Source of the DNA: a bacterium
Lineage (GTDB): Bacteria; Auribacterota; UBA3054; B51-G9
Direction of reading: 5' to 3'
DNA length: 25,106 nucleotides
NCBI GenBank assembly: GCA_029939815.1
Contig: JAOZSF010000002.1
Span: 1 to 25,106 of the forward strand
The notes below the pieces were generated by a model. It worked only from the letters and a program-made list of their open reading frames with translations, had not been told where the DNA came from and did no database searches. The translations under genes and the position numbers were made by a program. The first letter of the stretch is position 1, and each line of letters opens with the position of its first letter. Positions 6 to 21,642 of this stretch are shown here, piece by piece.

Positions 6-34
6 TTGCGTTTTTTGGCGGATTTCGTTATACT
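6..34 (+). promoter_or_regulatory. Candidate sigma70 promoter for the glycan operon
   Basis: TTGCGT (6-11), 17-nt spacer, TATACT (29-34), about 25-35 nt upstream of the first CDS. Confidence 0.45.
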
Positions 35-59
35 TTATACACTTTATATAAATTGAAAT

Positions 60-845
60 GTGATGATTATGACTTGGTGGACTAAACTATTTAAAATTAA
101 AGAAAATGAATCCGTGGATTTTGTTCCTCCGGAGAGATGGGTGGATTTACACTCGCATATTCTTCCCGGGGTGGATGACGGTGCAAAAACATTAAGTGAT
201 TCTCTATCGATGATTAAATATGCTTCAGAGATAGGAGTTACACATATAGTTGCCACTCCGCATTTTAGTGATTTATTCCCAACGACACCGGATAACAGAG
301 ATGCAGCTTTTAAATTATTAAAAGAAGCTGTTAGTGAATCCGGGATTAATGTTGAAATAATTTGTGGATGGGAGGTTAGCTATACAGATGTTCACATTAA
401 ACGCGTTCTTGACGGAGAGGATTTAAGTATTGCAGGGAGTAAGAATTATATGTTGATTGAATTGCCGAACGGGATAAACAAATCGGCTGTAATAGAAGGT
501 TTCTTTTCTTTAATGATTGAAGGAACTAAAATTGTATTAGCACATCCTGAAAGAAATAGTCTTATTCAACAGGATATTGATTTGGTAAAAGAATTACGCT
601 TTCGTGGAGTTATGATTCAAGTTGATGCTGAAAGTATCGTTGGTGTACACGGGCAAAGTGCTAAAAAAATAGCGATCGAGCTATTTAGGCGGGATGAAGT
701 GGATGCTTTAAGTTCGGATGCGCACACACTTAGCGGATATAAGAATTATAAAAAGGCCTGCGAAAAAATATGCAATAATTTCGGTCAGGAAATTATAAAT
801 AAGATATTAAATAAAGTACCTGTATCTATAGCAAATATAAAATAA
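60..845 (+). CDS. cpsB: PHP-family tyrosine-protein phosphatase (CpsB/CapC/YwqE type); start may be ATG 63 or 69
   Basis: Motifs DLHSHILPGVDDGA, VATPH, GWE, LIELP, AHPERN, SDAH; lies directly upstream of a BY-kinase. Confidence 0.93.
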   Translation: MMIMTWWTKLFKIKENESVDFVPPERWVDLHSHILPGVDDGAKTLSDSLSMIKYASEIGVTHIVATPHFSDLFPTTPDNRDAAFKLLKEAVSESGINVEIICGWEVSYTDVHIKRVLDGEDLSIAGSKNYMLIELPNGINKSAVIEGFFSLMIEGTKIVLAHPERNSLIQQDIDLVKELRFRGVMIQVDAESIVGVHGQSAKKIAIELFRRDEVDALSSDAHTLSGYKNYKKACEKICNNFGQEIINKILNKVPVSIANIK

Positions 846-869
846 AAACAACATAGTAAATGGAGAAGT

Positions 870-2834
870 ATGGAAACAAATAACGGAATACAGCAGGAAA
901 ATCAAAAAGAAGTTAAAGAACGTGATTTTAGAATGTATGCGAGAGTGCTGCTGAAATACGCGCCTTTAATTATTGGAATTACAATCACTACGACAGTAAT
1001 AGCATTTATATACTCTATAATGGCTACAGAAGTGTTTGAAGCGGAAACAATGCTGCGAATTGAACGCGGGAATATGAAAGCGATTCCCGGCCTTGATAAC
1101 GCGTTTTACAATGGCGGAAGGGACTATGACTTTTTTCAAACACAGATCAAACTTTTTAAAAGTCGAAGTCTTATAAAATCAACATTGGATGAACTCGCGG
1201 CGATGAAAGAGCCGTTTTCATCTAAGGATGATTTAACGGAAGAACAGAAAATAAATGCTTTTCTTGCAAAGGTAAAAGTAAAACCTGTACCACGAAGCCA
1301 GCTTGTTTATCTATGTGTTGAAGACGGGAATCCTGAAAAGGCGGCTTTATATGCCAACACATTGGCAAAAGAATATATCAAACAGTCCGTTGATGACAAG
1401 ATGTCGATAGTCAAGCATTATGGTGAATGGTTTGATAAACAGGCGACAGCCCATGAAAAAGTAATTCGTGAACGGGAAAAGAAATTTAAAGAATTTAGAA
1501 GGAAGCATAATATTGTTGAGCTTGATATTGATCTTAGCGCATCTAAAGACGCGTTGAAAAGATTACAAACTCAATTGAACGATATTGAGAATAAAATAGC
1601 AAGCAATGATACTTTTGATGAGGTTAAGAAATTTGAGCTTGAGCAGAAGAAAGCTGAAATACAAGGAGAGATTAAACGCGAAAAGGAACGAATAATCGAA
1701 CTTGATAATTTAAGCGCCCAGTATCTTTCTTTCCAGAAAAAAATACAAGCAGCTCAGAATTATTATTCAATATTGCTGAGCCGTGCTGAAGAATGGACAT
1801 CTACAACAGCGGGCGATAATAAGAAGCAATTTGACCCGCGTAATATTAACATTATTGATGAGGCTGAGCCGCCGACCCGGCCGAAGAAGCCCCGGAAAAC
1901 AGTTAACATACTTTTCGGTATGATTTTTGGAATGATATTAGGTATAGGGATAGCATTTTTTATTGAGTATCTTGATGACACAATTAAGTCACCTACCGAT
2001 GTGGAAAATTTCCTTCAGGTTCCGTTCCTTGGTTTAATTCCAACAATATCCTCAGCTCATGGTGCAAACGCGATAGAAGGAATAGTCGAAAGTCAGCCTA
2101 AAGGAACAATTGCTGAAAGTTACAGAGCGATAAGAACAAACATACTTTTTTCTTCTGACAGGAATGTGAAAAGATTAATAGTAACGAGTACCGGACCTTC
2201 AGAAGGAAAGACGACCACGGCGATTAACATCGCTGAAGTAATGGCGACAGCCGGCGACAAAACGTTGATTATTGACGGGGATATGCGTCGTCCGAGAATA
2301 CATAAAAATATTGATTTGAAAGGAGATGAAAAAGGATTAAGTAATTATCTGACCGGTAATGCGACGTTGGATGAAATTGTTCATGAAACATCAATAGAAT
2401 CGTTGCACGTAGTTCCGGCAGGACCTATACCGCCTAATCCTGTAGAGTTGTTAAACAGTCCTCGTCTCAAAGAATTTCTTGACAGGATGAGTGAAAAGTA
2501 TGATAGAATAATAATTGATAGTCCACCTGTTATCGCGGTTACCGACGCGGCAATTCTTGCGAGAATGGCTGACGGGGTTATATTTGTTGTTCATGGCGGT
2601 CTTGCGCATCGCGATATTGTAAAGCGGGGACTTAAGGGATTAATGAAAGTTGGCGGACATGTGTTTGGAGTGATTCTTAACAATGTTAATATTTACCGTG
2701 CGAGTTATTACGACTATTATTACTATAATTATTATCGCTATGCTTACGGTTATGGTTATCGCGATAAGAAAGCGGATAAGAAAAAAAAGAAGAAAGCGAA
2801 CAATAATAAGAATCAAGACTCAGTGCAGTTGTAA
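870..2834 (+). CDS. wzc: Wzc-like polysaccharide co-polymerase / BY tyrosine kinase (fused type)
   Basis: Two TM helices flanking a coiled-coil periplasmic region; ESYRAIRTN, Walker A GPSEGKTT, A' IIDGDMRRP, B IIIDSPP; C-terminal Tyr cluster; GGAG RBS at 862-865. Confidence 0.95.
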   Translation: METNNGIQQENQKEVKERDFRMYARVLLKYAPLIIGITITTTVIAFIYSIMATEVFEAETMLRIERGNMKAIPGLDNAFYNGGRDYDFFQTQIKLFKSRSLIKSTLDELAAMKEPFSSKDDLTEEQKINAFLAKVKVKPVPRSQLVYLCVEDGNPEKAALYANTLAKEYIKQSVDDKMSIVKHYGEWFDKQATAHEKVIREREKKFKEFRRKHNIVELDIDLSASKDALKRLQTQLNDIENKIASNDTFDEVKKFELEQKKAEIQGEIKREKERIIELDNLSAQYLSFQKKIQAAQNYYSILLSRAEEWTSTTAGDNKKQFDPRNINIIDEAEPPTRPKKPRKTVNILFGMIFGMILGIGIAFFIEYLDDTIKSPTDVENFLQVPFLGLIPTISSAHGANAIEGIVESQPKGTIAESYRAIRTNILFSSDRNVKRLIVTSTGPSEGKTTTAINIAEVMATAGDKTLIIDGDMRRPRIHKNIDLKGDEKGLSNYLTGNATLDEIVHETSIESLHVVPAGPIPPNPVELLNSPRLKEFLDRMSEKYDRIIIDSPPVIAVTDAAILARMADGVIFVVHGGLAHRDIVKRGLKGLMKVGGHVFGVILNNVNIYRASYYDYYYYNYYRYAYGYGYRDKKADKKKKKKANNNKNQDSVQL

Positions 2835-2863
2835 TGCCGCTGGAGAAAAATTAATTACTCAAA

Positions 2864-4480
2864 ATGAAACGGACGCACCCTGAAAGAATAATTATGTGGT
2901 TAATGGTAAGTTTGCTTGCCGTGTCGTTATTATTTTGTTTGAATTTGCTTATTGTCGAATATATACGCATTCTGATACTGGGAATGGCTCTTGCCATATT
3001 ATGTGTCACGTTTCCAGACAATTTCCATAAAAGTCATATAAGGGTAAGTTTTATAGCCGGTGCATATGCGTATATTTTATGGCTTTTTGACCCGGCAGTG
3101 AATGGAGTAGCTTTTTTTGGTGAAGGAGCAAAGGTATTTAATTTTTACCGTATTGTTTCATTTGGATTATTATTAACGGCGGCATCAATATGGTTATTTC
3201 CACTTATAACGCGAAAAATATCATATAAAGAATTTAAAGGAAAATTTACCCAAAGAGACATTTATATTTTTATCGGAATACTTTCGGTCGGCGTATTATT
3301 GACTTTAATGGAAATAATACGTGCGTACAATGAAAAAACAAGTTTTGTAGAAGCTACGTTAAAAGGAACTAAATTAATTGACTGTGCTTTAGTATATGTG
3401 CTTGTTATACGAGGAAAATCGACCAATGAGGTTTCAGAGAAAAAAAGAGTTTATACTTTGTTATATGCTTTCTTAATTTTTTGCGTGTTTACGAGCCTCG
3501 TTGGAGCAGGGCGTGCTGCGGTTGCGTATTACAAGGTAAGGATTCCTGAAAAGTTAGAGAAATCTGTTGGTGCAATCAGGAGGAAAAGACTGTTGGAGTT
3601 GCGTGAAAGATTGCTTCGTGTTTTTTCGCTTAATTCTCATGAAGCGCTTGTTGTTTATGAAGCAGGCTATTTTGCTGGTAAAAAGCAATGGAAAGAATCT
3701 TTAGAACAGTTAAGTAAAGCTTCAAAAATACCGCGAATTGCAATAGAAGAAGAAAAACTCATTGCTGAAATTGAGACGGGATTATATTCAAAAGCGATTC
3801 AGCGACTTGAAAGCATGCCTCTCGACTATAAATTTGCTTCTTTTCATTCAGATGAAATTGTAAAAAAGTTAATAAAAAGCTTAAAAAGAAAAGAAGTTGA
3901 GGATTCCGATTATTACCTTGCCGGTTTGTTTTATATGCATTTAGGCAAGCAAGATGAAGCGAAAAAATATTTCACGGAGTTTATTTCCGCTTCCGCATCT
4001 TCAAACAATGCCAACGCATTATATTTCTTAAATAATGGCAACCAAGAAAAATTAAAATCATATAATACTTTTCAAATGCCGGCAGCGGGATGGCTTCGTC
4101 CGCGAACCACGGACAAATCGGTAGAAGAATCCGGGGATATTATTACAATTGTTAATAATCAGCAAATTGAGGGTAAGCTATGGATAACCCCCGGTGATTA
4201 TAAAGTTACAATTATGGCGCGTGACTCGGGGACTCCTTATAAAAAAGCAAAGGAATCCGGGTTTGATCCGTCCTGCAAAATCAGAGTTTGGGTAGATGAT
4301 ACATTCAATAGTTTACGTATAGTATCAACCAATGGTACATTTAACGCGTACACCTTTGACGTGGAAATTAAGAACGAACCTTCGGATGTTATAATAGAAT
4401 TTACAAATGATACATATAATAAATCGCGGGGTTGGGATAGAAATGTTTCTATATCTCGCGTTACATTTAGTAGAGAATAA
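2864..4480 (+). CDS. Multi-TM membrane protein with TPR-like helices and a C-terminal CBM60-like beta-sandwich
   Basis: About 7 hydrophobic segments in the first ~220 aa; TPR-like YYLAGLFYMHLGKQDEAKKYF; C-terminal FTND...DRNVSI motif recalled from Pfam CBM60-like domains. Confidence 0.6.
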   Translation: MKRTHPERIIMWLMVSLLAVSLLFCLNLLIVEYIRILILGMALAILCVTFPDNFHKSHIRVSFIAGAYAYILWLFDPAVNGVAFFGEGAKVFNFYRIVSFGLLLTAASIWLFPLITRKISYKEFKGKFTQRDIYIFIGILSVGVLLTLMEIIRAYNEKTSFVEATLKGTKLIDCALVYVLVIRGKSTNEVSEKKRVYTLLYAFLIFCVFTSLVGAGRAAVAYYKVRIPEKLEKSVGAIRRKRLLELRERLLRVFSLNSHEALVVYEAGYFAGKKQWKESLEQLSKASKIPRIAIEEEKLIAEIETGLYSKAIQRLESMPLDYKFASFHSDEIVKKLIKSLKRKEVEDSDYYLAGLFYMHLGKQDEAKKYFTEFISASASSNNANALYFLNNGNQEKLKSYNTFQMPAAGWLRPRTTDKSVEESGDIITIVNNQQIEGKLWITPGDYKVTIMARDSGTPYKKAKESGFDPSCKIRVWVDDTFNSLRIVSTNGTFNAYTFDVEIKNEPSDVIIEFTNDTYNKSRGWDRNVSISRVTFSRE

Positions 4481-4483
4481 AAA

Positions 4484-5872
4484 ATGAAAACGTCTCAATT
4501 CGGCAGAAATGTTTTGATAGTAAGTCTTATCGGTATTATGCTGTTGACCTTTGCTTGTCATGTCAGATATTCGCAAAAAAATATAAAAATGGATGATCTG
4601 ATGCGAACAGAAGCTGTTGCTCCAAGCGCGGCAAGCCGGGATATTGTAAGGACAGTAGAAAAAGCGGTTGTTCATGATTTGAATTACTTAAATCAAATTA
4701 TCTTTTACAGTTTGTACAAAGGCAAAGCAATTTATCCGGTTAGTAAGTTTCGAATCTGGGACGGTTTATTTGCCGTTCTTGCCGTACTTATGATTTATCG
4801 GGTGGGCAGTATATGCGGAAATAAGGCCACCGGTATTTTAAGCGCGATACTTCTTGCACTGACCCCGCCGTCACTTTGGGGGGAATATGCTTTGAGGATA
4901 TTTGTAGTTCTTCTTAATTTTGAACTATTTATAACCGCAATTTCTAAAAACACGACTTTCCGGTGGTCATTGTGGTCGGTATCTTCTGTTTTACTTTTTA
5001 GCACCGGTGTTTTTGCTGAAGCGCTGCTTCTACAAAGTTGGTTTCTTTCTCTTATAATCGTTTTTGCTTTGTGGTCAATTGGAACGAAGGTAATGCCGGA
5101 GTGGAAGAAATTTGCCCTTTTGGCACGTGAGGCAAGAAGGAAGAAGAATAAAAGTTTATGGAAAAAGATTCAGGGGGATGCAGGCTTTTCGCGTTATATA
5201 GCAACCGCGATTTTTGTTGGAATTATAATTTTGGCATTAAGTTTTGTCGGCGGTTTTTTTGTTTCGAGATCAATATTATCAGTTGAAACTCTTGCCTTTA
5301 TAATTTTACTTTCTTTTGGTATGGTTATTATTGCTTCGGCAGTTCTATTTGCTTTACCTATTTTTAACCGAGAACGTAATATTGTTTTAGACTGGCTTTC
5401 GGAATATAAATTAAACAAGTCATCAAATGCCCCGTGTCAAATATTTACGACTCCAAGATCGGGGATAATATTAAAGCTCTTTTTTTCTTATTCAGCGGCG
5501 ATCTTGATTTTTCTACCTTTTTTCTTTGCTTTTTACAAAAATATAAATATATTTATCAATAACTGGGAATTTAGCAAAGCGATTACATTCGTTAATAGTT
5601 CGAACTCATTTTACACCTGGATTTTTCTTGCGCTGCCTGTTATATTTGTTTTGATTACACTAATATGTTATTTGCTTAGAATTGTTTCCCGCGGCAGATT
5701 AATTGGCGCAGTTTCCTTAATGATTCTTAGCAGTATTTATATTTTTCAGCAGCGATATGCTGTGATTTCCACGCCTTTTTATATAATCTGTTCTGCAGGT
5801 ATTGCGGCGATAACGGTAGATATCTTTTCTTTTTTATTTGTAAAACTAAATTCAGAAAATGAGAACTCGTAA
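4484..5872 (+). CDS. GT-C fold (ArnT/PMT, GT39/GT83-like) integral membrane protein
   Basis: FRIWDGLFAVLAVLMIYRVG...TGILSAILLALTP matches the ArnT/PMT_2 pattern; LPFF and QRY...P motifs; almost entirely hydrophobic. Confidence 0.65.
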   Translation: MKTSQFGRNVLIVSLIGIMLLTFACHVRYSQKNIKMDDLMRTEAVAPSAASRDIVRTVEKAVVHDLNYLNQIIFYSLYKGKAIYPVSKFRIWDGLFAVLAVLMIYRVGSICGNKATGILSAILLALTPPSLWGEYALRIFVVLLNFELFITAISKNTTFRWSLWSVSSVLLFSTGVFAEALLLQSWFLSLIIVFALWSIGTKVMPEWKKFALLAREARRKKNKSLWKKIQGDAGFSRYIATAIFVGIIILALSFVGGFFVSRSILSVETLAFIILLSFGMVIIASAVLFALPIFNRERNIVLDWLSEYKLNKSSNAPCQIFTTPRSGIILKLFFSYSAAILIFLPFFFAFYKNINIFINNWEFSKAITFVNSSNSFYTWIFLALPVIFVLITLICYLLRIVSRGRLIGAVSLMILSSIYIFQQRYAVISTPFYIICSAGIAAITVDIFSFLFVKLNSENENS

Positions 5873-8800
5873 TGACCGAACCACAACATACAAATAATAT
5901 TAAAAACAAAGATTCCGGCATGCGTGCCGGGATGTTGAAAGTGTTATTTGGTGTTTTGATAGTTGCTTTCACTTTCTTACGTATTTACCACATTCTGGCA
6001 GTCGGACTGACTACTTCAGAAGCAGATTTATTAACTAATTTCGGAGCAATGAGAACCTTTTCTTTTCCGTATTCGTTATTAGTAATTTCGTGGAATGAAC
6101 CGCTTACTGTAATGCTGATGCGCTTAGTTGCCCTGTGCGGAGAGCCACCTGTTTACGGCAGATATATTTTCGCCTTTTTCGGTGTGTGGAGTTTATTGCT
6201 TATTGCGGGTATTGCGCGGCGAAACAGCGGTTTGATAACCGCTTTAATTACTGTTGTTTTTGCCGGATTTTCTGCTGCACTTATAGTTTCGTCACAGGAA
6301 ATTTCAAAAATTTCTCTGATAATCTGGGCAGCGCTTATCGTACAGTGGGCATTTTCTTTATTAACCCATTCTCCAAAGCGAAGAAATGTTGTTATTTACC
6401 TGGTTTCAGCATTGGTAGGCGTTCTGTTTTCACCACTGATTTCATTCGTTATTTTGGCTCATTTGATTTGGTTTACTATTTTCGCGTTTCAGAAAAAAAG
6501 CGGAAATTCAATTCGCATTGCTTATATAATTACAGCGACGGGATCGCTGATTATTGCCTTGCCTTTTTTTATTTTGAAGTGGATAGCACTTAGTAAAATT
6601 AATATAATGGGTTTAGCACCGGTTTTAGTTACAACAGATACAATTCCTGAAATTACCGGTAATATAAAGGACCTTTTCTTTGTACATTCATCTCTTATTT
6701 TATACTATTTATTTATTCTGGTATCGGTTATTGCAATCTTTAGAAGTTTTTTTAAAAAAACAAGAGGAGCATGTGTCTGGGGAACTGTAGTTTTGCTTGT
6801 TTCTGCTGCTATGTTTATTTCACCATATAAAAACATGGGTAAAATTAACAATTCAATTCTTTTACCATTTGTTATACTTCTCATTGTTCAGGGATTTATT
6901 GAAGTGTCCGAAATGATAGCAAGACTTAAAGGATACGCAGGAAAAATTTTAAAATATTGTTTTATGACTTTGGTAACGGCAGTATTTGTTTTATGGGGAT
7001 TCGGACAATATAAATTTTACGAAAAAAAACAGCAGAGTATAATATCACGTGATTTATCATCCCCTTCAGAATTTCTTAAAAGAGTGGTTAAACCGAATGA
7101 CAAAATCATATTGGTAAGCGATATTGACACGTATGATTGGCTAAGAACTAAATATTATTTTTGTGATTATTTAACCGGTGAAGCCAAAGCTTCTTTTGAG
7201 CAAATCAACAAAGCAGAATGGCAAACAAACTGTTTGAATTATTTTCCTGATGAAAATTCATCTTTATGGCTTGTTGGCGTTTCCGGGTTAGGAAAAGACT
7301 GTGTACAGAATTCTTATACTAATTTAACTTTTTCCTATGCACTGCCTGTTACTTGGTTAATACAAACTTCAAAATGGAATGGCTTTGAATATCTAAATTT
7401 ACTGCGGGAAGCAAATGCGGCAACTCCTATGAATCATGCAATTACCGCTCAACTGTTAGATTGGTACAAGGGAAGTAGAGATGCAGACTTAGTAAAATGT
7501 GTTGAGAGCGGTTTTGCGGGAAAAGACATTGCGGCCGGCAGCGGTTCGGAATTGTTTAAGAAAGCGGCGGCGAATCGTATTTTATATGCGTGGAAAGAAT
7601 GTAATATCACCAATTTTTACAAATTCAATGAATTTGTAAATGAAGTTCGGGAATTTGGAATTGATAATGATCGTGCGATTCATCTGTACTCTTTATATGC
7701 TGAAAAGGCTTTAAGAAGTACAAATTTAATAGTCGCATTGACAGCTGTTGAATCTGCCAAAAGAATTGACCCTGAAAACCCGTTTATAAATCGCTTGGCG
7801 GCTAAAGCAGAGTCTTTAAAAAAGAACAAAAATCTGAATAAAATAGTTGAGTTAAATGAACTGGCCTCCAAAGAATATAGAAAACGGAATGGTAAAATAT
7901 TTATAGCAGCGGAGTTCGCAAATGCCTATGCATATCGTGCTTTGAGTAATTATGCCAAAGCTTTTGACAGTTGTAATGCTATTCTTTCGTATTATTCGGA
8001 TGGAATTAAGATGCCGGTTTCAATTCAAACAAATCTTACAGAAAATGGCAGGATCAGAAGAGAGAAATGGACAAATAACCGTTTGGCGTGGATAGGTAGA
8101 TGCAATTCATTTATTTCAACACTTTTATGCGAAACCGGTGACTTCGAAAACGCGATTTTATGGGAAACAAAAAATCTTGATGAACGTAATAGTGAAGCAA
8201 GGCGCACAACTTCGCGGGAAAGATTAGCAAAAATGTATACTAAGGTTGGCGGTATTGATAAGGCATTTCAATATATAGATTCATTGGCTAATTCCGCAAC
8301 TTCGGTAAATAAACGTATAAGTTGGAAAATCGAGGGAGCACAGCTGTATGTAACGTTAGGAGACACCGTTTCAACTTATGACAAATGGAATGATTTACAA
8401 AAAGAAATTGAGAAACTTCCAATGGAAGAGCGGTGGAAATGGTCGAAGAATAAACAGTACCAACGAATACTTCGATATCTTAGCAGCAGATCACAAATGG
8501 ATATTCGGAATCCTGTACTTGTCTCTATCGGAAAAAGAGCTGCGAAAGAAACTAATGCGACAATCGCTGCCGGATTACGCATTCAAATGGCAGGAATATA
8601 TAAATGCAAACTTCAGTATGGTCAAGCGGAAAAAATGTTTAAGCTTGCCGAAAAGATTGCTCCTCTTTATTTTGATTCTTTTCTTTCAGACGGGATTCTT
8701 AAGTATAGAATGAAAAGGTATGCGAAAGCGGAAACTGTTTTTACCAATATTACACATGCTATAAAAGAAAAGAATATTATTAGTCAATCAACGCAGGATT

Positions 8801-9192
8801 GGCGGTATATTGTTTTGGATATGCTTGTTGAAAAGGGAACTCCCCCTTCACTCGAAAATGTTCTTGCGCGGATGGAGGAGTTTAAGCCATATATTGCCGA
8901 TGTCTCTGAATATAATAATTATCGTGGAAATATTCTTGCGTGTTATGGTAAGTTTGACTTAGCCACAAATCAATTCACGCTTGGCATTCAAACAAATCGA
9001 TTTAATTTGCAAAATCATCTTGATCTTGGTTATCTTATTTGTAAACATTCTAATGCTGATGAAGCCGGAAAAATAATTGACAGAATTATGTCTTTGGATT
9101 TGCCGGAAAAAGACAAGCAAATTCTTGAGACTGATTGGCGATTTATAATATTACATCATGTAAGTGTACGACCGTACAATTTAAAAGAGTAA
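5872..9192 (+). CDS. GT-C fold membrane glycosyltransferase-like protein with a soluble domain and long TPR-like C-terminal region
   Basis: N-terminal ~380 aa multi-TM with GLTTSEA, NEPL, GRYIFAFFGV, SQEIS, AH, LPFF; then PNDKIIL...LWLV domain; helical repeats such as YNNYRGNILACYGKFDLATNQF; TAATG overlap with the upstream gene. Confidence 0.7.
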   Translation: MTEPQHTNNIKNKDSGMRAGMLKVLFGVLIVAFTFLRIYHILAVGLTTSEADLLTNFGAMRTFSFPYSLLVISWNEPLTVMLMRLVALCGEPPVYGRYIFAFFGVWSLLLIAGIARRNSGLITALITVVFAGFSAALIVSSQEISKISLIIWAALIVQWAFSLLTHSPKRRNVVIYLVSALVGVLFSPLISFVILAHLIWFTIFAFQKKSGNSIRIAYIITATGSLIIALPFFILKWIALSKINIMGLAPVLVTTDTIPEITGNIKDLFFVHSSLILYYLFILVSVIAIFRSFFKKTRGACVWGTVVLLVSAAMFISPYKNMGKINNSILLPFVILLIVQGFIEVSEMIARLKGYAGKILKYCFMTLVTAVFVLWGFGQYKFYEKKQQSIISRDLSSPSEFLKRVVKPNDKIILVSDIDTYDWLRTKYYFCDYLTGEAKASFEQINKAEWQTNCLNYFPDENSSLWLVGVSGLGKDCVQNSYTNLTFSYALPVTWLIQTSKWNGFEYLNLLREANAATPMNHAITAQLLDWYKGSRDADLVKCVESGFAGKDIAAGSGSELFKKAAANRILYAWKECNITNFYKFNEFVNEVREFGIDNDRAIHLYSLYAEKALRSTNLIVALTAVESAKRIDPENPFINRLAAKAESLKKNKNLNKIVELNELASKEYRKRNGKIFIAAEFANAYAYRALSNYAKAFDSCNAILSYYSDGIKMPVSIQTNLTENGRIRREKWTNNRLAWIGRCNSFISTLLCETGDFENAILWETKNLDERNSEARRTTSRERLAKMYTKVGGIDKAFQYIDSLANSATSVNKRISWKIEGAQLYVTLGDTVSTYDKWNDLQKEIEKLPMEERWKWSKNKQYQRILRYLSSRSQMDIRNPVLVSIGKRAAKETNATIAAGLRIQMAGIYKCKLQYGQAEKMFKLAEKIAPLYFDSFLSDGILKYRMKRYAKAETVFTNITHAIKEKNIISQSTQDWRYIVLDMLVEKGTPPSLENVLARMEEFKPYIADVSEYNNYRGNILACYGKFDLATNQFTLGIQTNRFNLQNHLDLGYLICKHSNADEAGKIIDRIMSLDLPEKDKQILETDWRFIILHHVSVRPYNLKE

Positions 9193-9196
9193 AACT

Positions 9197-10531
9197 ATGA
9201 ACTTATCACACAAAATCATTATATCATTGTTGTTAATCTTAACTGTTTTAGGCAGTTCAAATTGCTGTGCCGGTGCTAAGCAGCCCAAATTGTATGATTA
9301 TATACAAAAGATTTCAGAACATATAAAACCATTACCGCTGCTCTATGCTCAGAAAAGTGACAGACGTTTGGAATATGAGAATATGATGAATATTCTTTTT
9401 TCACTTATGTATCTTGGTGATACTTTGGTAATAATGACTCCTGACGGTGATTATGCGGTATTCACGTATTTGAAAAAAAATAAAATTGTTTTGAAATCAA
9501 CTCAATATGAAGAATTAACATCTAATTTTAAAAGTTTACTTGATGATTATAAAAGAATTTGGGTCGTTGTCGTTGACCATAGAGCCGGATGGCAGGCTCA
9601 ACCGCCAAGTCAATATTTGCCTGTGCTGAAAAAAGATTATATGGATCTTCCGTTACCGATGCCAACTTATTTTGCGGATAAAGGTGTTGTAGTCGGTTCA
9701 ACTAATTTCTGGATTAATAAGGCTGCGTTATTAAAAAAAGTGGCTGAAATCAGCCCCCAAAATAGGAACCCGCGCCTGTATTTGCGGTTGGGACAAGTAT
9801 ATAGGCGGTTTGGCAAACTTGAAGAAGCGGTAAAAACTTATGAAAAAGGAATAAAATATTTTCCGGAAGACCCTTTTTTACACAGAGAACTTGGAGCATG
9901 TTATTATTGGGAATATTCGCCTCCGCTTTTAGAGGAATCAATAAAAGAAAATCGTATTGCCAATCAGTGCCATATAAGCAAGTTTGGCAAGCCTAAATAT
10001 GACGCGATGTTTAATGCGGCAATGGCGTACAGAGACCTTGGTGAATTGACGAAAGCACAGCTTCAATACAATGATATTTTACGATCAATAAATGAGTTTC
10101 CTGACAATTATTTTGAATCTCAGACGAGGCGTTATCTTGCTAATGTATATCTTGAGAGCGGAAGAACAAATGACGCACGGCTTCAGTATGAGCTTGACAT
10201 TAAGCTTGCTGCTCAGCCGTTACCTTATTCTTATAATAAACTGCTTGACATTTATGACGTTAACGGCGAAAAGAAAAAGTATAGTGATGCGGTGAAAGAA
10301 TATTTTGAAGTTTGTGGTAACAAAGATCCGTCAGCAATAATTCGTTATATAGATTATGTGAAAGATAGTGAAGAGAAACAACTGATAATAGAAGATATTA
10401 ATGTCGTGAAAACATGGATGCAGTCAAATACAAACTTGCTTAATAAAATAAGATTAAACCCCGAGTGGTGGGATATTTGGACTAATGTGACGATAAACTG
10501 CGGTGTTTCACCGGTAACTAATAAAAAATAA
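9197..10531 (+). CDS. Exported or membrane-anchored TPR protein
   Basis: N-terminal hydrophobic helix; canonical TPRs LYLRLGQVYRRFGKLEEAVKTYEKGIKYFPEDPFLHRELGACY and AMFNAAMAYRDLGELTKA. Confidence 0.8.
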   Translation: MNLSHKIIISLLLILTVLGSSNCCAGAKQPKLYDYIQKISEHIKPLPLLYAQKSDRRLEYENMMNILFSLMYLGDTLVIMTPDGDYAVFTYLKKNKIVLKSTQYEELTSNFKSLLDDYKRIWVVVVDHRAGWQAQPPSQYLPVLKKDYMDLPLPMPTYFADKGVVVGSTNFWINKAALLKKVAEISPQNRNPRLYLRLGQVYRRFGKLEEAVKTYEKGIKYFPEDPFLHRELGACYYWEYSPPLLEESIKENRIANQCHISKFGKPKYDAMFNAAMAYRDLGELTKAQLQYNDILRSINEFPDNYFESQTRRYLANVYLESGRTNDARLQYELDIKLAAQPLPYSYNKLLDIYDVNGEKKKYSDAVKEYFEVCGNKDPSAIIRYIDYVKDSEEKQLIIEDINVVKTWMQSNTNLLNKIRLNPEWWDIWTNVTINCGVSPVTNKK

Positions 10532-10536
10532 TTCTT

Positions 10537-11121
10537 GTGGGTATAAAAAGAAAAATAATTTCTCAATTCGGGAAAATATACCTTGAAATGAAAGGTGTTG
10601 AAATCGGAAGTGCAGTTGTTATGTACGGGCTTCCACGAGTTAATATCGTAAATGGAGCAAGAATTATAATCGGTAATAATGTTGCTTTATGCTCAACAAG
10701 TGATGGGAATCCATTAGGTGTAAACCATCGCGTGATTTTATCCGCGATCCGTTCAGATAGTGAAATTATAATCGGAAGTGATACAGGAATTAGCGGAACG
10801 ACAATTGCCGCAGCAAAATCTGTGAAGATTGGCAGTAATTGCTTGATTGGTGCTAATGTAACAATTACGGATTATGATTTTCATTCGGTAAAACCGGAAG
10901 GCAGGAGATATAATACAAATACTGAAGATATTGGCTGTTCCTCTGTTGTTATAGAAGACAATGTTTGGCTGGGCATGAACGTTATTGTGTTAAAAGGCGT
11001 TAGAATAGGGCAAAACAGTATTATTGCAGCAGGAAGTATAGTAACAAAATCTATTCCTTCAAATTGTATTGCCGGTGGTAATCCGGCAAAGATTCTGAAG
11101 GAAGTTAGTAATAAAGAATAG
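10537..11121 (+). CDS. Left-handed beta-helix O-acyltransferase (maltose/galactoside acetyltransferase-like)
   Basis: Hexapeptide repeats (IGSNCLIGANVTI; IEDNVWLGMNVIVLKGVRIG) and terminal AGGNPAK; GTG start. Confidence 0.92.
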   Translation: MGIKRKIISQFGKIYLEMKGVEIGSAVVMYGLPRVNIVNGARIIIGNNVALCSTSDGNPLGVNHRVILSAIRSDSEIIIGSDTGISGTTIAAAKSVKIGSNCLIGANVTITDYDFHSVKPEGRRYNTNTEDIGCSSVVIEDNVWLGMNVIVLKGVRIGQNSIIAAGSIVTKSIPSNCIAGGNPAKILKEVSNKE

Positions 11122-11133
11122 GTTTATAATAAA

Positions 11134-12453
11134 ATGGAATATCAGTTTATGGAGTCAACAACAATGAAATTCACAGTAGAAATATTAGTGGCTGTAGGGC
11201 TCGTACTTGCGTTTATCCGACCTAAATGGTTGCTTTATTTTCTTGTATTTAGTTTGCTGGAGCCATCACGTTTTTTAAGTCTCGGGAATTATGTTATTCT
11301 TGGCACGGTAAACGTAAAATATTATGAGATTACGATATCACTGATTTATTTTAGCGCACTATGGAATCAAAAAAGATCAATTAAGGACTGTGTGCCGGTC
11401 AGCCTTGTAGTGTTTATCTTTTTTGCCCTTATTTCTCTGTGGAGGGGAAATTCGATATATGGTGAAGCGGCTTTCAACCAGTTTCGTACTTTTTATTCTA
11501 TGGGAATGTGCCTTGTAATTCCTCTGCTTTTTAAAGAAACGAAAGAGCTGCGGCCATTATTGATTTTCTTTTTTATTATGACTGTAATTATGGGATCTAT
11601 AGAATTTCTTGGTGTGATGGGGGTAAATAAAATTAATCAGTTTGCAATGAGTGGAAATCGATATACTTCTATGTTAAGCGCTTCGCAGGGGGCTATGCTG
11701 GCAATGCCGTATATCTACGTTTTAAGTACTTTTCGCTATATTAATAAAAACAGGATTATGGTTCTTTTGGGTGGAGTATATTGCTTTGCTTTATCGGTAA
11801 TGACTGGTTCAAGAGGAGTTTTACTTGGACTAATTGGAGGAACAGCCGGACTGATTTTGCTAATGCCGATACGCAAAAAAGTCACTATAACAATAACTAT
11901 TGTATTACTTGGATTATCTTCTTTTGTTTTTGCCAAAACTTTTTATATTGAACGTTACGGAATGACCCTTGGTGAAAGATTTAGCAACATAATTTCAACA
12001 CATGAAGGTACCGCAAGGTGGCGACTTGATGCGTGGCGCCAAATGCTTGATGATATTAAAGAAAAACCGCTTTTGGGCTCTCCATTCGGAACTTCTTCTG
12101 TTTTTAATGTTTACGGCGGTAATAGAGAAGAGCATGCACCGCATAATGAGTATTTGAAAATTGCGAGGTACACCGGTTTAATTGGTTTTGGTGCGTTTAT
12201 ATGGTTTCTTGTGGGGATTTTCTTTTCCGGTTTTAAAAAACTAAGAAAACTTGGCGAAAATAAAGAATATTATGAACTTGCAGCTTTTATAATGTGTTTT
12301 CTTTTTCATGTAATTACCGCTACGTTTACGCAGGCTTTCACCACGATGGACAGAAGTCCGATTGTTTGGGCATTAGCCGGAATAATTACACTTTATACTT
12401 TAACGAATACTAAAAAAAGTTCTGAAAAAAAAACAATACAAAAATACGCGTAA
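11134..12453 (+). CDS. O-antigen ligase/polymerase family (Wzy_C) protein
   Basis: About 12 TM; TGSRG, RWRLDAW...KPLLG and PHNEYL...TGLIGF motifs. Confidence 0.85.
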   Translation: MEYQFMESTTMKFTVEILVAVGLVLAFIRPKWLLYFLVFSLLEPSRFLSLGNYVILGTVNVKYYEITISLIYFSALWNQKRSIKDCVPVSLVVFIFFALISLWRGNSIYGEAAFNQFRTFYSMGMCLVIPLLFKETKELRPLLIFFFIMTVIMGSIEFLGVMGVNKINQFAMSGNRYTSMLSASQGAMLAMPYIYVLSTFRYINKNRIMVLLGGVYCFALSVMTGSRGVLLGLIGGTAGLILLMPIRKKVTITITIVLLGLSSFVFAKTFYIERYGMTLGERFSNIISTHEGTARWRLDAWRQMLDDIKEKPLLGSPFGTSSVFNVYGGNREEHAPHNEYLKIARYTGLIGFGAFIWFLVGIFFSGFKKLRKLGENKEYYELAAFIMCFLFHVITATFTQAFTTMDRSPIVWALAGIITLYTLTNTKKSSEKKTIQKYA

Positions 12454-12459
12454 ATAATT

Positions 12460-13608
12460 TTGATCATGAAACTGCTATTTCTTAATGCTAATATTGCCGG
12501 ATGCGGAACTTATCACAGAGCTTTGTGGTTCGGCAGATTATGCGCTGAAAACGGCGGACATGATGTTACAATTTGCACCGTGTCGCGTAATGAAAAATGG
12601 AAACGTAAAACGAGAGTTGAAAAGGGAATTACTATTACTGAAGGACCCAAATGGGGATACAAAAACATCCCCGGTTACGGTTCAAACTGGCTCGATATTT
12701 TATGGAGATGGAAAAAAATAGTGTCCGGTAATTACGATGTGATATTTGGATTTGAATATCATCCTAATGTGGCATGGCCAATTTACGCCGGGCTAAGAAA
12801 AAACCAGACTTTTATTTCAGATTGGTGCGATTGGTATTCAGGAGCAGCCAATCATTTCAAAGGAAATAAGATTGCTCATAAATGGGATAAAAATCGTGAA
12901 GAGAAAATCAGATTGAAAGCGGATAGAGTTAGTGTTATCAGCACAATGCTTTTTGAACGTGCAATGGATGTTGGCGTAAACAAAAAAAATATTACGTTGT
13001 TGCGTGAGGGTGTTGATACTAATTATATGAAACCATATCCGAAAGAAAGTGCCCGCTTGGAGTTAGGGATTTGTCAGGATACGCCAATAGTTGGAACTCT
13101 TACCGATGGTCATGCTTTTCCATTTCTTATTGATGCCTTTAAAAAAGTAAAAAAAGAAATAAATAACGCGAAACTCTTACTTGTCGGTGGTTTGACTCCC
13201 GAACAAAATAAACTTGTAATTGAAAGCGGATTGCAGGACTCTTTTATTTCAACAGGGAGATGCAGTGATGAACAACTGCCTGTTTTTCTTTCTGCGGCTG
13301 ATATTTTTGCTTTGCCGATGGCGGACACATTAGCGAATAAAGCCAGATTTCCGCATAAAATTGGAGATTATCTTGCGTGTGCCCGGCCGCTTGTTGTAAC
13401 TCGGGTGGGTGATTATCCCGAAATGCTTCGCGAGGATGGAGTTTCTGTGGTTGTTGATAATCAGGATAATTTTTCAATTGAACTGATAAAATTGATTAAA
13501 AATAAAGAACAACAAAACTTTCTCGCTAGAAAAAGCAGAGAATGGGTTGTTGAAAAGCTTGAATGGTCGGTAATTGCTCCCGATATCCTTAAATTTGTTG
13601 AAGGATGA
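12460..13608 (+). CDS. GT4 family glycosyltransferase
   Basis: GT-B layout; REGVD; LSAADIFALP...RFPHKIGDYLACARPLVVT. Confidence 0.9.
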   Translation: MIMKLLFLNANIAGCGTYHRALWFGRLCAENGGHDVTICTVSRNEKWKRKTRVEKGITITEGPKWGYKNIPGYGSNWLDILWRWKKIVSGNYDVIFGFEYHPNVAWPIYAGLRKNQTFISDWCDWYSGAANHFKGNKIAHKWDKNREEKIRLKADRVSVISTMLFERAMDVGVNKKNITLLREGVDTNYMKPYPKESARLELGICQDTPIVGTLTDGHAFPFLIDAFKKVKKEINNAKLLLVGGLTPEQNKLVIESGLQDSFISTGRCSDEQLPVFLSAADIFALPMADTLANKARFPHKIGDYLACARPLVVTRVGDYPEMLREDGVSVVVDNQDNFSIELIKLIKNKEQQNFLARKSREWVVEKLEWSVIAPDILKFVEG

Positions 13609-13670
13609 CAATTAACCCTCCTTCGGCGGATGCTACGCACAATAACATTAACGAATAACGATTAATAAAA

Positions 13671-15842
13671 ATGCCAAATAAAAATAAATCTATAATAAGT
13701 AAAATATTATTTTCCCTTATTGTATTACCTATTACCGCAATATATCAATTGAGTTTCTTTGCTCAATCGGATGTTTTTCTTCAGGTAACGGTATTTGCTT
13801 TGAGTCTTTTCATTTTTTGTCTGTCTTGGTATAGGTGGACATTAGCGGTATATGTTTTTATTTTTTGCATACCGGTATTTAACACACTTAATGCTATATT
13901 TAGAATTCCATGGCCGGGGATCAATGTTAATGCTGTGATTCTTGGTGCATTATTAACATCCTGGGTTTATCACTATATTTGGGGAAAGCCTATTTCAGAT
14001 AAAAAACCTGATGTTTATTTACGCAAGACTCCACTTGACGGTATTTTAATATTTCTTGGCGTAATTATAATTTTACAATTACCGGTTGGCTGGGCACGCT
14101 TCAATAATGTTCTATGCCCCGGATTTTATAATGATGTCCCGCGGCAGATTATGAGTATACCGTTTTTCAGTATGCTGGATAATTATTTATGCTTTACCAG
14201 ATTATGGCAGTTCATGCAGATTGGTGTGGCCTTTTATTTGATTTGCTCTTCAATACGCCACCGGGAACAATTAAGAAATGTTCTCTGGCTTATTGTGATT
14301 TCAGGAGTTGTTGTAGGTTCTTATGGTATATTTCAATATTTTGCAGGATTTAGATGGGTTGGTATAAATTGGTTCTTTATGCGTGTTAATGCGACATTAA
14401 ACGGTCCTCACGCCGCTGGTATTTATTTCGCGACACTAATGGTCTTATGTGTGGCTCTGTTTTTCGCTACTCAGTCATATTGGAGAAAAATTATGATGTT
14501 TGCCGCAACTTGCGTGGCAGGCGGTGGTTTATGGTTTTCAGGAACAAGAACTGCCGCATTTGCGCTTGTAATTGTGCTTGGTGTGCTCGCGCTTGCTTTT
14601 CTTGTAATCTCAATGATTAAAAGTACAAATGTGAGAAAGGTTTTCTTAATCATTGTTGCTGTTTTGCTTTTTCTGGGACCGGGGTATTCGCTGATTATGC
14701 CAACGCAGGGACCGCTTTCCTCAATTACAAGATCAAGACAATTCCAGAGATTTACTGAAGGATTTAATAAATTAGCGTCTGATAAATCTTCATCAACGCT
14801 AAACGAATGGCTTGCATACAGATTTTATCACTGGACATCGGCAGCTAATGTTATTAAACAATTCCCGGTAACCGGTTCGGGCATCGGAACATTTGATAAA
14901 CTATATCGTCATGTGAAATTAAAAGATGATACATATAAAACAGCATTTGCTCACGCATTGTACTTGGATATACTGGTAGAGCAGGGTGTTTTTGCTTTGC
15001 TTGGGATAGTGTGTCTGTATTGTATTGCTATTGTCTTAAGCTGGAAACTTTATCGCGCGCGCGAAGTTTCATGGAGATGGAAACTGATGGGGATGGCAAT
15101 GCTTGTTTCACTATATGTCACCTTTGTCTCCAATTTTTTCACAAGCGATTTTTATTATGTTCTTGAACTGCAATTATGGTTTGCTCTTCTGTTTGCATTG
15201 GTGGTTTGTAACTATCAGCTTAATTTTGATCCGGTTCCATATTCGCTAACCAGACGTCTTAAAACAGCATCCGCCAATTTTTTTGCCTTCATAAAAAAAT
15301 CAAAAATAAGAATTGTTCTTGTGACCATTGTTATTTTACTTCTCTTATCCGGCTGGATTATTGAGCTTGGCAACTCAATTTATTATGGTTATACTTTTTT
15401 CAACTCTGCTAAACAATATACTCTAATTGACAGGATTCTGGAGTACGGTATTTTTTATTATCAAAAAGATGATCATAATAATAAATTTGCAAGAACTGCG
15501 AAATCAGTCTATAAGCCAATCAGAGTTAAAGATAAAAATTTGAGACTTTTCCTCAGAGCGGAACATCCTGATGTTAAAGAAAAACCGGTAAAGGCTACTG
15601 TTAGAATTGATGATGTTGTTGTAGGGGACACCATTTTGTCTAACAGAGAGTGGAACTTGTGTAGATTTGATTTAGGTGAATGGTTTGCAGATCATGCTAC
15701 TAATGTAGTTGGCAAAGAAGGAATTCCGGCCGTTCTTAATTTTGAATCAAGCAGAACATGGAATCCTTATAATTTGAAAAAAGGCAAAGATGACCATGAT
15801 TACGGAATTGACCTGGGAGCAATTGAATGGGGATATTATTAA
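13671..15842 (+). CDS. O-antigen ligase family protein with an extra C-terminal soluble beta-rich domain
   Basis: RVNATLNGPH, SGTR, RFYHW...FPVTGSGIGTF, AHALYLDILVEQG; ~150-aa soluble tail ending RTWNP...DYGIDLGAIEW. Confidence 0.85.
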   Translation: MPNKNKSIISKILFSLIVLPITAIYQLSFFAQSDVFLQVTVFALSLFIFCLSWYRWTLAVYVFIFCIPVFNTLNAIFRIPWPGINVNAVILGALLTSWVYHYIWGKPISDKKPDVYLRKTPLDGILIFLGVIIILQLPVGWARFNNVLCPGFYNDVPRQIMSIPFFSMLDNYLCFTRLWQFMQIGVAFYLICSSIRHREQLRNVLWLIVISGVVVGSYGIFQYFAGFRWVGINWFFMRVNATLNGPHAAGIYFATLMVLCVALFFATQSYWRKIMMFAATCVAGGGLWFSGTRTAAFALVIVLGVLALAFLVISMIKSTNVRKVFLIIVAVLLFLGPGYSLIMPTQGPLSSITRSRQFQRFTEGFNKLASDKSSSTLNEWLAYRFYHWTSAANVIKQFPVTGSGIGTFDKLYRHVKLKDDTYKTAFAHALYLDILVEQGVFALLGIVCLYCIAIVLSWKLYRAREVSWRWKLMGMAMLVSLYVTFVSNFFTSDFYYVLELQLWFALLFALVVCNYQLNFDPVPYSLTRRLKTASANFFAFIKKSKIRIVLVTIVILLLLSGWIIELGNSIYYGYTFFNSAKQYTLIDRILEYGIFYYQKDDHNNKFARTAKSVYKPIRVKDKNLRLFLRAEHPDVKEKPVKATVRIDDVVVGDTILSNREWNLCRFDLGEWFADHATNVVGKEGIPAVLNFESSRTWNPYNLKKGKDDHDYGIDLGAIEWGYY

Positions 15843-15899: not shown

Positions 15900-16415
15900 A
15901 TGGAGACAATTATGAAATTGATATCAATGATAATCTTTATATTTGTAACAATGTCCTCTTTTTCACTTTTAGGTGGAGACGTCACTATTGATCAATCCGA
16001 TGTCAGCAGGATTTCCGGTGAAGCAAAAAAACAAATCGCTTCTGAAAGAAAAGAGGCAAAAAAGAGTGTTCGAAGAAAATCAGGGAATAGTAAATCCGGT
16101 AGGGAAAGGATAAGCAAACGTGATAAGCGCGATATAAAAAAAGAGTCGCGTAGAGACAAAAAACAGGCCAGAAAGGAAATTAGAAAGAAAGAAATAGCCG
16201 CCACAAAAGCTATTAATGAAAGTAAAACAAAAACAGTTACTGTTCCAAAAAGTAAAATACCAGTTCCGCCGAGTCAAAAAAAACAGGAAGCGAAACCTGT
16301 TGTGAAAAAACAAACAAAACCATCGGTACATAAATCTTCACCTGCCAAAAAACAAACTAAACCTGAACCGGTTGAAGAATCATACTGGTATGATTCAGTT
16401 ATTTTTTGGGATTGA
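15900..16415 (+). CDS. Hypothetical secreted Lys/Arg-rich low-complexity protein
   Basis: Signal-like N-terminus, K/R/E-rich helix, P/K-rich linker, aromatic end EESYWYDSVIFWD. Confidence 0.7.
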   Translation: METIMKLISMIIFIFVTMSSFSLLGGDVTIDQSDVSRISGEAKKQIASERKEAKKSVRRKSGNSKSGRERISKRDKRDIKKESRRDKKQARKEIRKKEIAATKAINESKTKTVTVPKSKIPVPPSQKKQEAKPVVKKQTKPSVHKSSPAKKQTKPEPVEESYWYDSVIFWD

Positions 16416-16571
16416 ACCCCGGTTTCTATGAACTGCGACTAAATCACATCTTTTGAAATAAAAAAAGCTGGATTGACGATATTCATTGCAATTAAGGCGT
16501 TTTGTACTTTCAAATACAGCCATGTGGAAATAGAGGGAAGGTAGTTTATTCCGTTGCAAATAGAGATTCAA

Positions 16572-18143: not shown

Positions 18144-18178
18144 CTATCCACAAAACGTAGCATTAATTATAAATAAAA

Positions 18179-20236: not shown

Positions 20237-20253
20237 AAAAATAATTAAAGGAA

Positions 20254-20610: not shown

Positions 20611-20616
20611 TGTTAA

Positions 20617-21635: not shown

Positions 21636-21642
21636 ATCTATA

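Follow-up and report, generated by a model that had tools for sequence, protein, structure and literature searches.

What is made by a locus that encodes a Wzc-type kinase, two Wzy_C proteins and several membrane glycosyltransferases of the GT-C fold, and that holds no gene of its own for initiating, flipping or exporting a glycan? The question is raised by ten same-strand open reading frames (ORFs), here called G1 to G10, which an ORF listing with translation places at positions 60-15842 (+) of the window, i.e., the whole 25,106-base contig analyzed (C21; JAOZSF010000002.1) from an Auribacterota genome that is 81% complete and lies in 430 contigs. Few parts of a bacterial genome usually vary as much as its surface-glycan loci. 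This cassette keeps its content and order throughout an uncultured order, small genomes (1.4-2.2 Mb) included, which points to a core envelope component with a status like that of enterobacterial common antigen. We see about an even chance that it supplies the periplasmic-face steps, i.e., one half, of a Wzx/Wzy-type pathway that makes a 'common antigen' glycan shared by the whole order. The ten genes are as follows.

60..845, + strand: G1, CpsB/CapC-type PHP tyrosine phosphatase (PF19567, E 9.6e-50, 169.6 bits against a cut-off of 27)
870..2834, + strand: G2, Wzc-type bacterial tyrosine kinase (BY-kinase) with PF02706 (Wzz), PF13807 (GNVR) and PF13614 (AAA_31)
2864..4480, + strand: G3, family without a name, with 7 transmembrane (TM) helices, a helical region resembling tetratricopeptide repeats (TPRs) and a beta-sandwich like carbohydrate-binding modules (CBMs) 36/60
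4484..5872, + strand: G4, divergent GT-C of subclass A (PMT_2/STT3/ArnT-like) without a soluble domain, by profile and fold
5872..9192, + strand: G5, PMT_2-like GT-C N-domain (about residues 25-421) followed by a large periplasmic helical/TPR domain (about 430-1106), by hhalign
9197..10531, + strand: G6, exported TPR protein (TPR_14 8.9e-11, TPR_12 1.8e-10) with a hydrophobic N-terminal signal-like segment
10537..11121, + strand: G7, hexapeptide-repeat O-acetyltransferase, WbbJ/WcaF-like (PF00132, 4.5e-14)
11134..12453, + strand: G8, Wzy_C protein of 439 amino acids (aa), candidate polymerase (PF04932, 1.6e-14, 54.4 bits against a cut-off of 31.7)
12460..13608, + strand: G9, cytoplasmic GT4 (GT-B) glycosyltransferase (PF13692 8.6e-19, PF00534 1.2e-16, PF13439 6.4e-09)
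13671..15842, + strand: G10, Wzy_C protein of 723 aa, candidate ligase (PF04932, 3.7e-16, 59.7 bits against a cut-off of 31.7)

These genes form one conserved operon. From G1 to G10 the intergenic gaps are 24, 29, 3, -1, 4, 5, 12, 6 and 62 nt, which reproduces the ten co-oriented genes and the gap range of -1 to 62 nt reported in the initial annotation of this DNA, made from the sequence alone. The operon had been called Wzc-led there; its first gene (60-845) is instead the CpsB/PHP-type tyrosine phosphatase (PF19567), with Wzc second. Pfam agrees that the cassette holds only one GT-B enzyme (the GT4 at 12460) and one acyltransferase (the hexapeptide protein at 10537), and the reported lack of a recognizable Wzx, Wza or initiating phosphoglycosyl transferase (PGT) was confirmed, with no Pfam or NCBIfam match to any of the three among the cassette proteins. 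No description of the ten-gene set was found in the open-access papers searched.

Related loci were drawn from reference genomes, metagenomes and 79 genomes of the window's phylum, and 13 loci, i.e., ten plus three from genomes of other families, were compared by tblastn. At all 13, every cassette gene present keeps the window order on one strand; the full G1-G10 set was seen at four, the other nine being cut by contig ends. This arrangement extends over identities down to 24% for G4 and G5 and over GC contents from 0.32 to 0.65, and the reading-frame overlaps of 4-13 nt, or close abutment, across G3/G4/G5/G6 recur in distant lineages. Full-length G4 was detected in 16 of the 17 other genomes of the order, the sole miss being a genome that is 64% complete, but was not detected in any of the 61 genomes that the phylum has outside this order, 20 of which gave weak partial matches only (best E 6.1e-11). 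The adjoining G3 was likewise detected in 16/17 and 0/61 genomes (17/79 overall). Conservation of the gene set, which had been proposed as a check, is thus borne out in both gene order and occurrence. The building blocks are of known kinds; what is new is a fixed ten-gene architecture that is near-universal in, and restricted to, one uncultured order, that has no linked PGT, Wzx or Wza genes, and that includes two families without a library model (G3 and G4). For a lineage without cultured members, the cassette also offers a defined gene set for heterologous reconstitution.

Several cassette proteins fall into familiar families. In G2, a Wzz/GNVR periplasmic region lies between TM helices at residues 33-51 and 347-365 and is followed by a P-loop kinase in the C-terminal part, with a tail rich in Tyr; the NCBIfam model TIGR01007 scored 216.3 bits against its cut-off of 108.05, with the full-length Wzc equivalog models below cut-off. 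By these sequence features, G2 is assigned to the Wzc-type BY-kinases, i.e., class 2a of the polysaccharide copolymerases (PCP-2a). The top NCBIfam match of G7 was WbbJ (8.4e-25), under the cut-off of that model.

The product of G4 had been read as a GT-C-fold protein, and both profile and fold comparisons support that reading. G4 and three orthologues gave no Pfam match at E <= 0.01, PMT_2 (PF13231) included, and only 14 homologues were found among 5.8 billion clustered proteins. A profile built from 12 homologues and run with hmmsearch against 1.84 billion representatives retrieved 24 proteins at E <= 1e-3, comprising 17 family members (E <= 1e-10) and 7 remote matches, all 7 of which are PMT_2 proteins (PF13231, E 1.5e-12 to 6.1e-18) and one of which (P0036) also bears TPRs. 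When the G4 family was aligned with these seven proteins by hhalign, a probability of 98.1% was obtained (E 7e-14, 158 columns), with D37-D38 of G4 placed on the invariant D-E of the PMT_2 proteins in the first periplasmic loop; at position 38, all but one of the 17 members of the family alignment (16/17) carry D or E. An acidic residue of the first extracytoplasmic loop is catalytic in GT-C enzymes. Because G4 fails the Pfam model and its kinship appears at the profile level only, we regard it as a PMT_2 relative outside the Pfam family.

A hydropathy scan of G4 found 13 partly overlapping segments, and its AlphaFold model is all-helical over residues 5-461. With VIA-align, which works independently of Foldseek, the top 20 rows were all of GT-C type (17 GT-C glycosyltransferases and 3 chains from glycosylphosphatidylinositol transamidase entries), and row 21 had a Z of 7.2. 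The highest Z scores were for STT3 (17.8, root-mean-square deviation [rmsd] 5.8, 296 residues aligned), AglB (16.9), Pmt1-Pmt2 (15.7) and ArnT (14.3), followed by DPY19 (14.0), PglB (13.7), AftA (12.2), AftB (10.1), AftD (10.0) and EmbA-EmbB (9.1). The first 19 Foldseek rows were all oligosaccharyltransferases or DPY19, with E values of only 1e-3 to 0.35. In Meitil et al. 2024 (PMC10920833), the families GT39, GT83, GT53, GT57 and GT66 are placed in GT-C subclass A. Altogether, the profile and model comparisons indicate that G4 is a new family of this subclass.

The start of G5 overlaps the stop of G4, and its N-domain is also PMT_2-like. A G5 family of 10 close homologues matched the PMT_2 set with an hhalign probability of 97.3% (E 1.7e-11, 367 columns, residues 25-421), and S49-E50 of G5 fall on the PMT_2 D-E motif, with E50 and D52 invariant in the 10 close relatives. 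No family rose above noise in Pfam or NCBIfam, PMT_2 included, and the single sequence found nothing relevant among solved structures. G4 and G5 are each related to PMT_2 proteins, and their direct hhalign comparison detected no kinship between the two (probability 2.6%). The C-terminal part is helical and TPR-like; TPR_19 was matched in G5 orthologues at E 4.7e-10. One metagenomic orthologue of 997 aa has a shortened membrane domain.

The N-half of G3 (2864 to about 3540) had been counted as a probable fifth GT-C, and this count is not supported. GT-C proteins are given 8-14 TM helices in PMC10920833, compared to 7 in the G3 model, and hhalign found no similarity of the N-half to PMT_2 (1.4%), the G4 family (0.9%) or the G8 family (3.9%); a search of the Atlas returned no usable match for this half. 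The predicted model (pLDDT 74.5) has its TM helices within residues 6-225, a helical region at 236-397 and a beta-sandwich at 402-537, and Pfam reports one TPR and CBM60 (E 4.9e-10). The sandwich resembles CBM36, CBM35 and CBM6 modules, the top match being CBM36 7ay3 (Z 13.7, rmsd 2.1, 116 residues aligned), and BcsB of cellulose synthase is among its fold matches (Z 9.8); the fold-search matches of the whole model correspond to this C-terminal domain, the TM part lying outside their coverage. Many charged residues are invariant in the TM part (E32, R35, D76, R96, E150 and K170), which suggests that it is more than an anchor. G3 is a membrane-protein family covered by neither Pfam nor NCBIfam.

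Both Wzy_C proteins exceed the Pfam cut-off. G8 has about 10 TM segments; G10 carries an additional TM helix and, at its C-terminus, an extracytoplasmic extension. Meitil et al. 2024 (PMC10920833) describe GT-C subclass B as consisting of O-antigen ligases and SEDS proteins and assign related bacterial polysaccharide polymerase families to it as well; because of that assignment, counting the proteins at 11134 and 13671 as GT-C-fold, as had been done, is defensible. A profile of G10 with 2 orthologues and 4 large paralogues matched the solved WaaL structure 7tpg_B at E 2.6e-11, and a profile of seven G8 orthologues gave no WaaL match and only a chance hit among solved structures. As single sequences, G10 had no match in the Protein Data Bank at E <= 1 and G8 nothing relevant among solved structures. 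These comparisons hint, as weak evidence, that G8 may be the polymerase and G10 the ligase. The genome holds 8 Wzy_C genes in total, G8 and G10 included. The six others encode large proteins (about 740-940 aa) with the domain placed as in G10, and are dispersed, each on its own next to housekeeping genes (recA, metG, lexA, purM-like), over contigs C430, C358, C59, C87, C142 and C328. One of these six, of 813 aa, directly follows a PGT, and the ratio of 8 Wzy_C genes to 3 PGTs is unusual.

The initial annotation had stressed the lack of repeat-unit assembly genes and had suggested searching the rest of the genome. The cassette holds no PGT, Wzx or Wza; as an argument against a Wzx/Wzy pathway, this lack is weakened by what lies elsewhere. 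Three PGTs were found on three other contigs, all three passing the TIGR03025 EPS_sugtrans cut-off, together with two Wzx-like genes, each alone among housekeeping genes, and one exosortase. The search for Wza came up empty, with 0 Poly_export matches in this genome at its 81% completeness. Five PMT_2 matches, three of them over cut-off, and 12 GT2 matches were also found, all of the latter outside the cassette. Across the order, PGT, Wzx and LpxC were each detected in 18/18 genomes (Wzx over cut-off in 17) and Wza in 1/18. Since PGT and Wzx occur in every genome of the order, the early steps are available in trans and are equally conserved. The Wza channel does seem to be missing. Contig C322 also carries, at about 6047-8816, a PMT_2-like GT-C gene (a 427-aa ORF) preceded some 2 kb upstream by a GT2 gene; the two look like a separate periplasmic glycosylation pair of GtrB/GtrC type.

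From this gene content we infer the order of steps, the donors, the acceptor, the roles of G8 and G10, and any physical complex, as follows. An exopolysaccharide (EPS)-type PGT encoded elsewhere would start a polyprenyl-phosphate-linked unit, which the GT4 enzyme G9 would extend and G7 would O-acetylate in the cytoplasm before it is flipped to the other side of the membrane by a Wzx whose gene also lies elsewhere. Polymerization of the units would then fall to G8, the small Wzy_C protein, under control of the Wzc kinase G2 and the CpsB phosphatase G1. On the periplasmic side, the polymer would receive sugars from polyprenyl-phosphate donors through G4 and, in most lineages, through the GT-C domain of G5 as well; lipid-phosphate monosaccharides are the donors of GT-C subclass A, oligosaccharyltransferases excepted, according to PMC10920833 (Table 1). 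The TPR/CBM proteins (G3, the C-domain of G5, and G6) may hold or guide the polymer, and its transfer to the final acceptor would be the task of the WaaL-like G10. With LpxC present and Wza almost absent throughout the order, lipid A-core is the obvious candidate for that acceptor, and both it and the Lpt route are available. The cassette also raises the question of how a Wzc-controlled polymer leaves the periplasm in lipopolysaccharide-bearing diderms that lack Wza.

Set beside Wzx/Wzy pathways for group-1-type capsule or EPS, O-antigen and enterobacterial common antigen, the cassette shares a PCP-2a-type BY-kinase with a phosphatase, two Wzy_C proteins (one WaaL-like), a GT4 enzyme and an acetyltransferase, and, like enterobacterial common antigen, it is conserved over a whole order instead of varying between strains. 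Unlike those pathways, it has no initiating PGT or Wzx and only one cytoplasmic glycosyltransferase; the Wza/OPX (outer membrane polysaccharide export) component was found neither in this genome nor in 17 of the 18 genomes of the order; its phosphatase is of the PHP (CpsB) type; and 4 of its 10 genes encode non-canonical TPR/CBM or GT-C membrane proteins. A canonical Wzx/Wzy capsule locus encodes PGT, Wzx and Wza/OPX together with the polymerase, and the cassette falls outside that definition.

Several observations weigh against the periplasmic-half reading. No PGT, Wzx or GtrB-like GT2 is linked to the cassette, and no GtrA was recognized, although no search was aimed at it. Assigning the unlinked PGT, Wzx and GT2 genes to the cassette is a guess, since the genome offers 3 PGTs, 2 Wzx-like genes, 12 GT2 genes and 8 Wzy_C candidates. 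Wzc-type kinases normally act with a Wza-type channel, which is missing here, and O-antigen pathways normally use a kinase-less Wzz. The division of labor between G8 and G10 rests on one profile match, and that profile included four paralogues from outside the cassette. The G4 model has only modest confidence (pLDDT 59.2, predicted TM-score [pTM] 0.55), and G5 carries S-E where PMT_2 proteins have D-E. In two genomes of another family, f5, which is the small-genome family of the order, the G5 orthologue (L063:13503-15545; L067:13055-15097) is a protein of 680 aa with a lipoprotein-like signal and a soluble, TPR-containing domain, without any TM domain. Because the membrane domain is missing there, the periplasmic domain is the conserved core of G5; the f5 form reflects either a loss of the domain in f5 or its acquisition in the lineage of the window, and in G5 the GT-C part may serve only as an anchor. 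Accordingly, the claim that the protein at 5872 is a GT-C is supported for the window by the PMT_2-like N-domain and fails for its f5 orthologues; the broader description of the cassette as dominated by GT-C proteins does not apply everywhere.

Compared to three-component periplasmic glycosylation systems (GtrA/GtrB/GtrC, ArnT, GacL, YfhO), the cassette likewise places a GT-C inside a polysaccharide locus, where extracytoplasmic addition of sugars from polyprenyl-phosphate sugars is to be expected. It differs in having no GT2 (GtrB-like) and, as far as recognized without an aimed search, no GtrA-type flippase, and in that G4 is too divergent for Pfam PMT_2, has no soluble domain and is frame-coupled to TPR/CBM proteins. 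G5 also recalls the PMT/TMTC-type O-mannosyltransferases (GT39 and relatives), as it joins a PMT_2-like membrane domain to a large TPR-like extracytoplasmic domain, and the adjacency of G4 and G5 recalls paired PMT subunits, Pmt1-Pmt2 (Z 15.7) being a top match of G4. Unlike these enzymes, the cassette proteins have no MIR domain, G5 has the S-E motif in place of D-E, the f5 form of G5 has no membrane domain, and protein substrates are not evidenced for the cassette.

The single exosortase of the genome is a 706-aa protein fused to an EpsI-like C-terminal domain and encoded on contig C292 (L042; 6141-8261, minus strand), with ispE, xseA, aminotransferase genes and a PrsT-like TPR gene as neighbors. 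It was found, in a form of about 700-770 aa, in 16/18 genomes of the order, and an exosortase was found in 61/79 genomes of the phylum; because it is spread over the phylum and the cassette is confined to one order, the exosortase is not cassette-specific. Matches elsewhere in the phylum are mostly ORFs of about 270-560 aa, the best-scoring being near 280-300 aa. A regular expression for PEP-CTERM tails retrieved 41 ORFs ending in PEP, a hydrophobic stretch and basic residues, some in proteins of more than 1,400 aa; the expression allowed P[EDQTS]P, and 41/41 matches read PEP. The XrtA-system NCBIfam models TIGR03018, TIGR03007, TIGR02917, TIGR04063 and TIGR03097 match cassette proteins, all below their cut-offs; such a model is the top NCBIfam match for G9, G10 and G5, and other models outscore it for G2 and G6.

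Haft et al. 2006 (PMC1569441) linked exosortase to EPS loci with glycosyltransferase group 1, chain-length determinant and sugar-transferase genes. Compared to the XrtA/PEP-CTERM EPS loci of that source, the present genome also combines an exosortase with many PEP-CTERM-like proteins, and XrtA-system models are among the matches of the cassette kinase, GT4, Wzy_C and TPR proteins. The differences are that the cassette matches stay below cut-off, that the exosortase gene is on a separate contig with unrelated neighbors, that the cassette has no PrsK/PrsR, Wza-like exporter or PGT, and that the exosortase is phylum-wide and the cassette restricted to one order. Neither models passed at cut-off nor linkage to an exosortase, by which such an EPS locus is recognized, was found for the cassette. 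A link between cassette and exosortase is possible.

According to the initial annotation, its proposal would fall if the remaining capsule genes lay just upstream. The window and contig C184 (L003) share 55 identical bases, which open the window and close the contig, and C184 carries the following features upstream of G1.

C184: deoxyhypusine synthase gene
C184: gene for an arginase-family protein (agmatinase)
C184: CAAX protease gene
C184: mannose-6-phosphate isomerase gene, divergent from G1
C184, 4035-4110: tRNA-Ala(GGC), about 200 bases upstream of G1, between the isomerase gene and G1

In the contigs of two relatives, the isomerase (92% and 89% identical) again lies divergently upstream of the G1 orthologue, and the tRNA-containing intergenic region is kept, so the junction between C184 and the window is real. 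The flanks of distant relatives are housekeeping genes that vary, i.e., carbamoyltransferase, rpsB-tsf/ribosomal genes, MlaA and metal transporters, and the isomerase is not beside the cassette outside close relatives. No wzx, wza or PGT gene was found in the flanks of this genome or of the 5 relatives with upstream sequence. What lies upstream is thus tRNA-Ala, isomerase or housekeeping genes, and not the rest of a capsule locus.

How far, then, can other explanations account for the cassette? An ordinary, strain-variable Wzx/Wzy capsule or EPS locus with its other genes just outside the window would be suggested by the typical content of Wzc, CpsB, Wzy_C, GT4 and acetyltransferase and by the fact that only 59 bases of the window precede G1. 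It is largely refuted, and we leave it only the faintest chance: the overlapping upstream contig holds housekeeping genes and tRNA-Ala, with the same junction in two relatives; carbamoyltransferase or ribosomal genes take that position in distant relatives; and content and order are fixed order-wide at identities down to 24%, unlike variable capsule loci. There is a small but appreciable chance that the cassette is instead a protein O-glycosylation machine, in which G10 and/or G8 would act like PglL/PilO by en bloc transfer to envelope proteins, G4 and G5 would act like PMT/TMTC enzymes from polyprenyl-phosphate sugars, and the TPRs would choose acceptors, with PEP-CTERM cargo as natural candidates. 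The top NCBIfam match of G10, 'putative O-glycosylation ligase, exosortase A system-associated' (TIGR03097, E 1.7e-6), points this way, as do the PMT_2 proteins that are the nearest relatives of G4 and G5, the remote P0036 among them having TPRs too, and the presence of one exosortase with 41 PEP-CTERM-like tails in a lineage where 16/18 genomes of the order have an exosortase. Streptococcal GT-C enzymes reportedly glycosylate Ser/Thr-rich regions of membrane-associated proteins. On the other hand, the Wzc kinase, the CpsB phosphatase and the CBM36/60-like domain point to a polymer substrate; TIGR03097, like every XrtA-system match, is below cut-off; the exosortase, present in 61/79 genomes of a phylum in which only one order has the cassette, never adjoins it in the loci examined; and the exported proteins neighboring the cassette are not conserved with it.

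A different view, which we rate as improbable, starts from the single cytoplasmic glycosyltransferase, few for a conserved heteropolymer locus. If the polymer were synthesized in the periplasm by GT-C enzymes, as mycobacterial arabinan is by Emb/Aft, G4 (with G5) would assemble much of the glycan directly from polyprenyl-phosphate monosaccharides on a short GT4-made primer, with G3, the G5 C-domain and G6 as a membrane-anchored scaffold for the growing chain, and this would explain the lone cytoplasmic enzyme. The fold matches of G4 to AftA, AftB, AftD and EmbA-EmbB (Z 12.2, 10.1, 10.0 and 9.1), the tight frame coupling kept across G3-G4-G5-G6, and the carbohydrate-binding module and charged TM residues of G3 fit such synthesis. 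Those fold matches are, however, weaker than the ones to STT3, AglB, PMT and ArnT; the sequence shows no readable processivity feature; f5 dispenses with the GT-C domain of G5; and two Wzy_C proteins with Wzc are the hallmark of block polymerization of repeat units linked to lipid pyrophosphate. It also seems unlikely to us that G3-G4-G5-G6 form a stoichiometric inner-membrane/periplasmic complex within a self-contained, Wza-independent, order-specific machine, a complex that builds or remodels a polymer from polyprenyl-phosphate sugars and hands it to the WaaL-like transferase. From its charged TM residues, G3 could be the missing translocator of lipid-linked sugars or a new transferase.

One further feature of the 5' end bears on expression of the cassette.

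6..34, + strand: promoter-like element TTGCGT-17-TATACT, 5' of G1, by sequence match

The element, reported in the initial annotation, is present and is kept at the same intergenic position in two relatives (L005 and L044), where the -10 hexamer reads TATAAT. Sigma-70-like matches in this AT-rich DNA barely exceed chance (86 observed compared to 68.3 +/- 8.8 in shuffled sequence), and for this reason its identity as a promoter is graded plausible.

Downstream of the cassette, the exported proteins encoded at 15900-19336 had been put forward as possible substrates. This suggestion was not upheld, as tblastn of these genes against the 30-36 kb surrounding the cassette gave no match in any of three genomes from other families; in close relatives, the contigs stop within G10 or at its end. 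The proteins are a small, very lysine-rich exported protein (15900-16415, +), a LamG/concanavalin-like exported protein (16554-18143, +) and a beta-helix 'choice-of-anchor Q' protein (18179-19336, +; NF041518, 1.8e-8) that ends in ...VDMGAYEYPVR. In several paralogues of the last elsewhere in the genome, the same motif is directly followed by a PEP-CTERM tail, which the copy at 18179-19336 does not have. The remainder of the window (19388-25104) is unrelated housekeeping sequence, with panC, DUF1844 and TraB/GumN-family genes on the minus strand, followed by genes for an extracytoplasmic function (ECF) sigma factor, a small membrane protein, YbjQ and a flotillin/SPFH protein.

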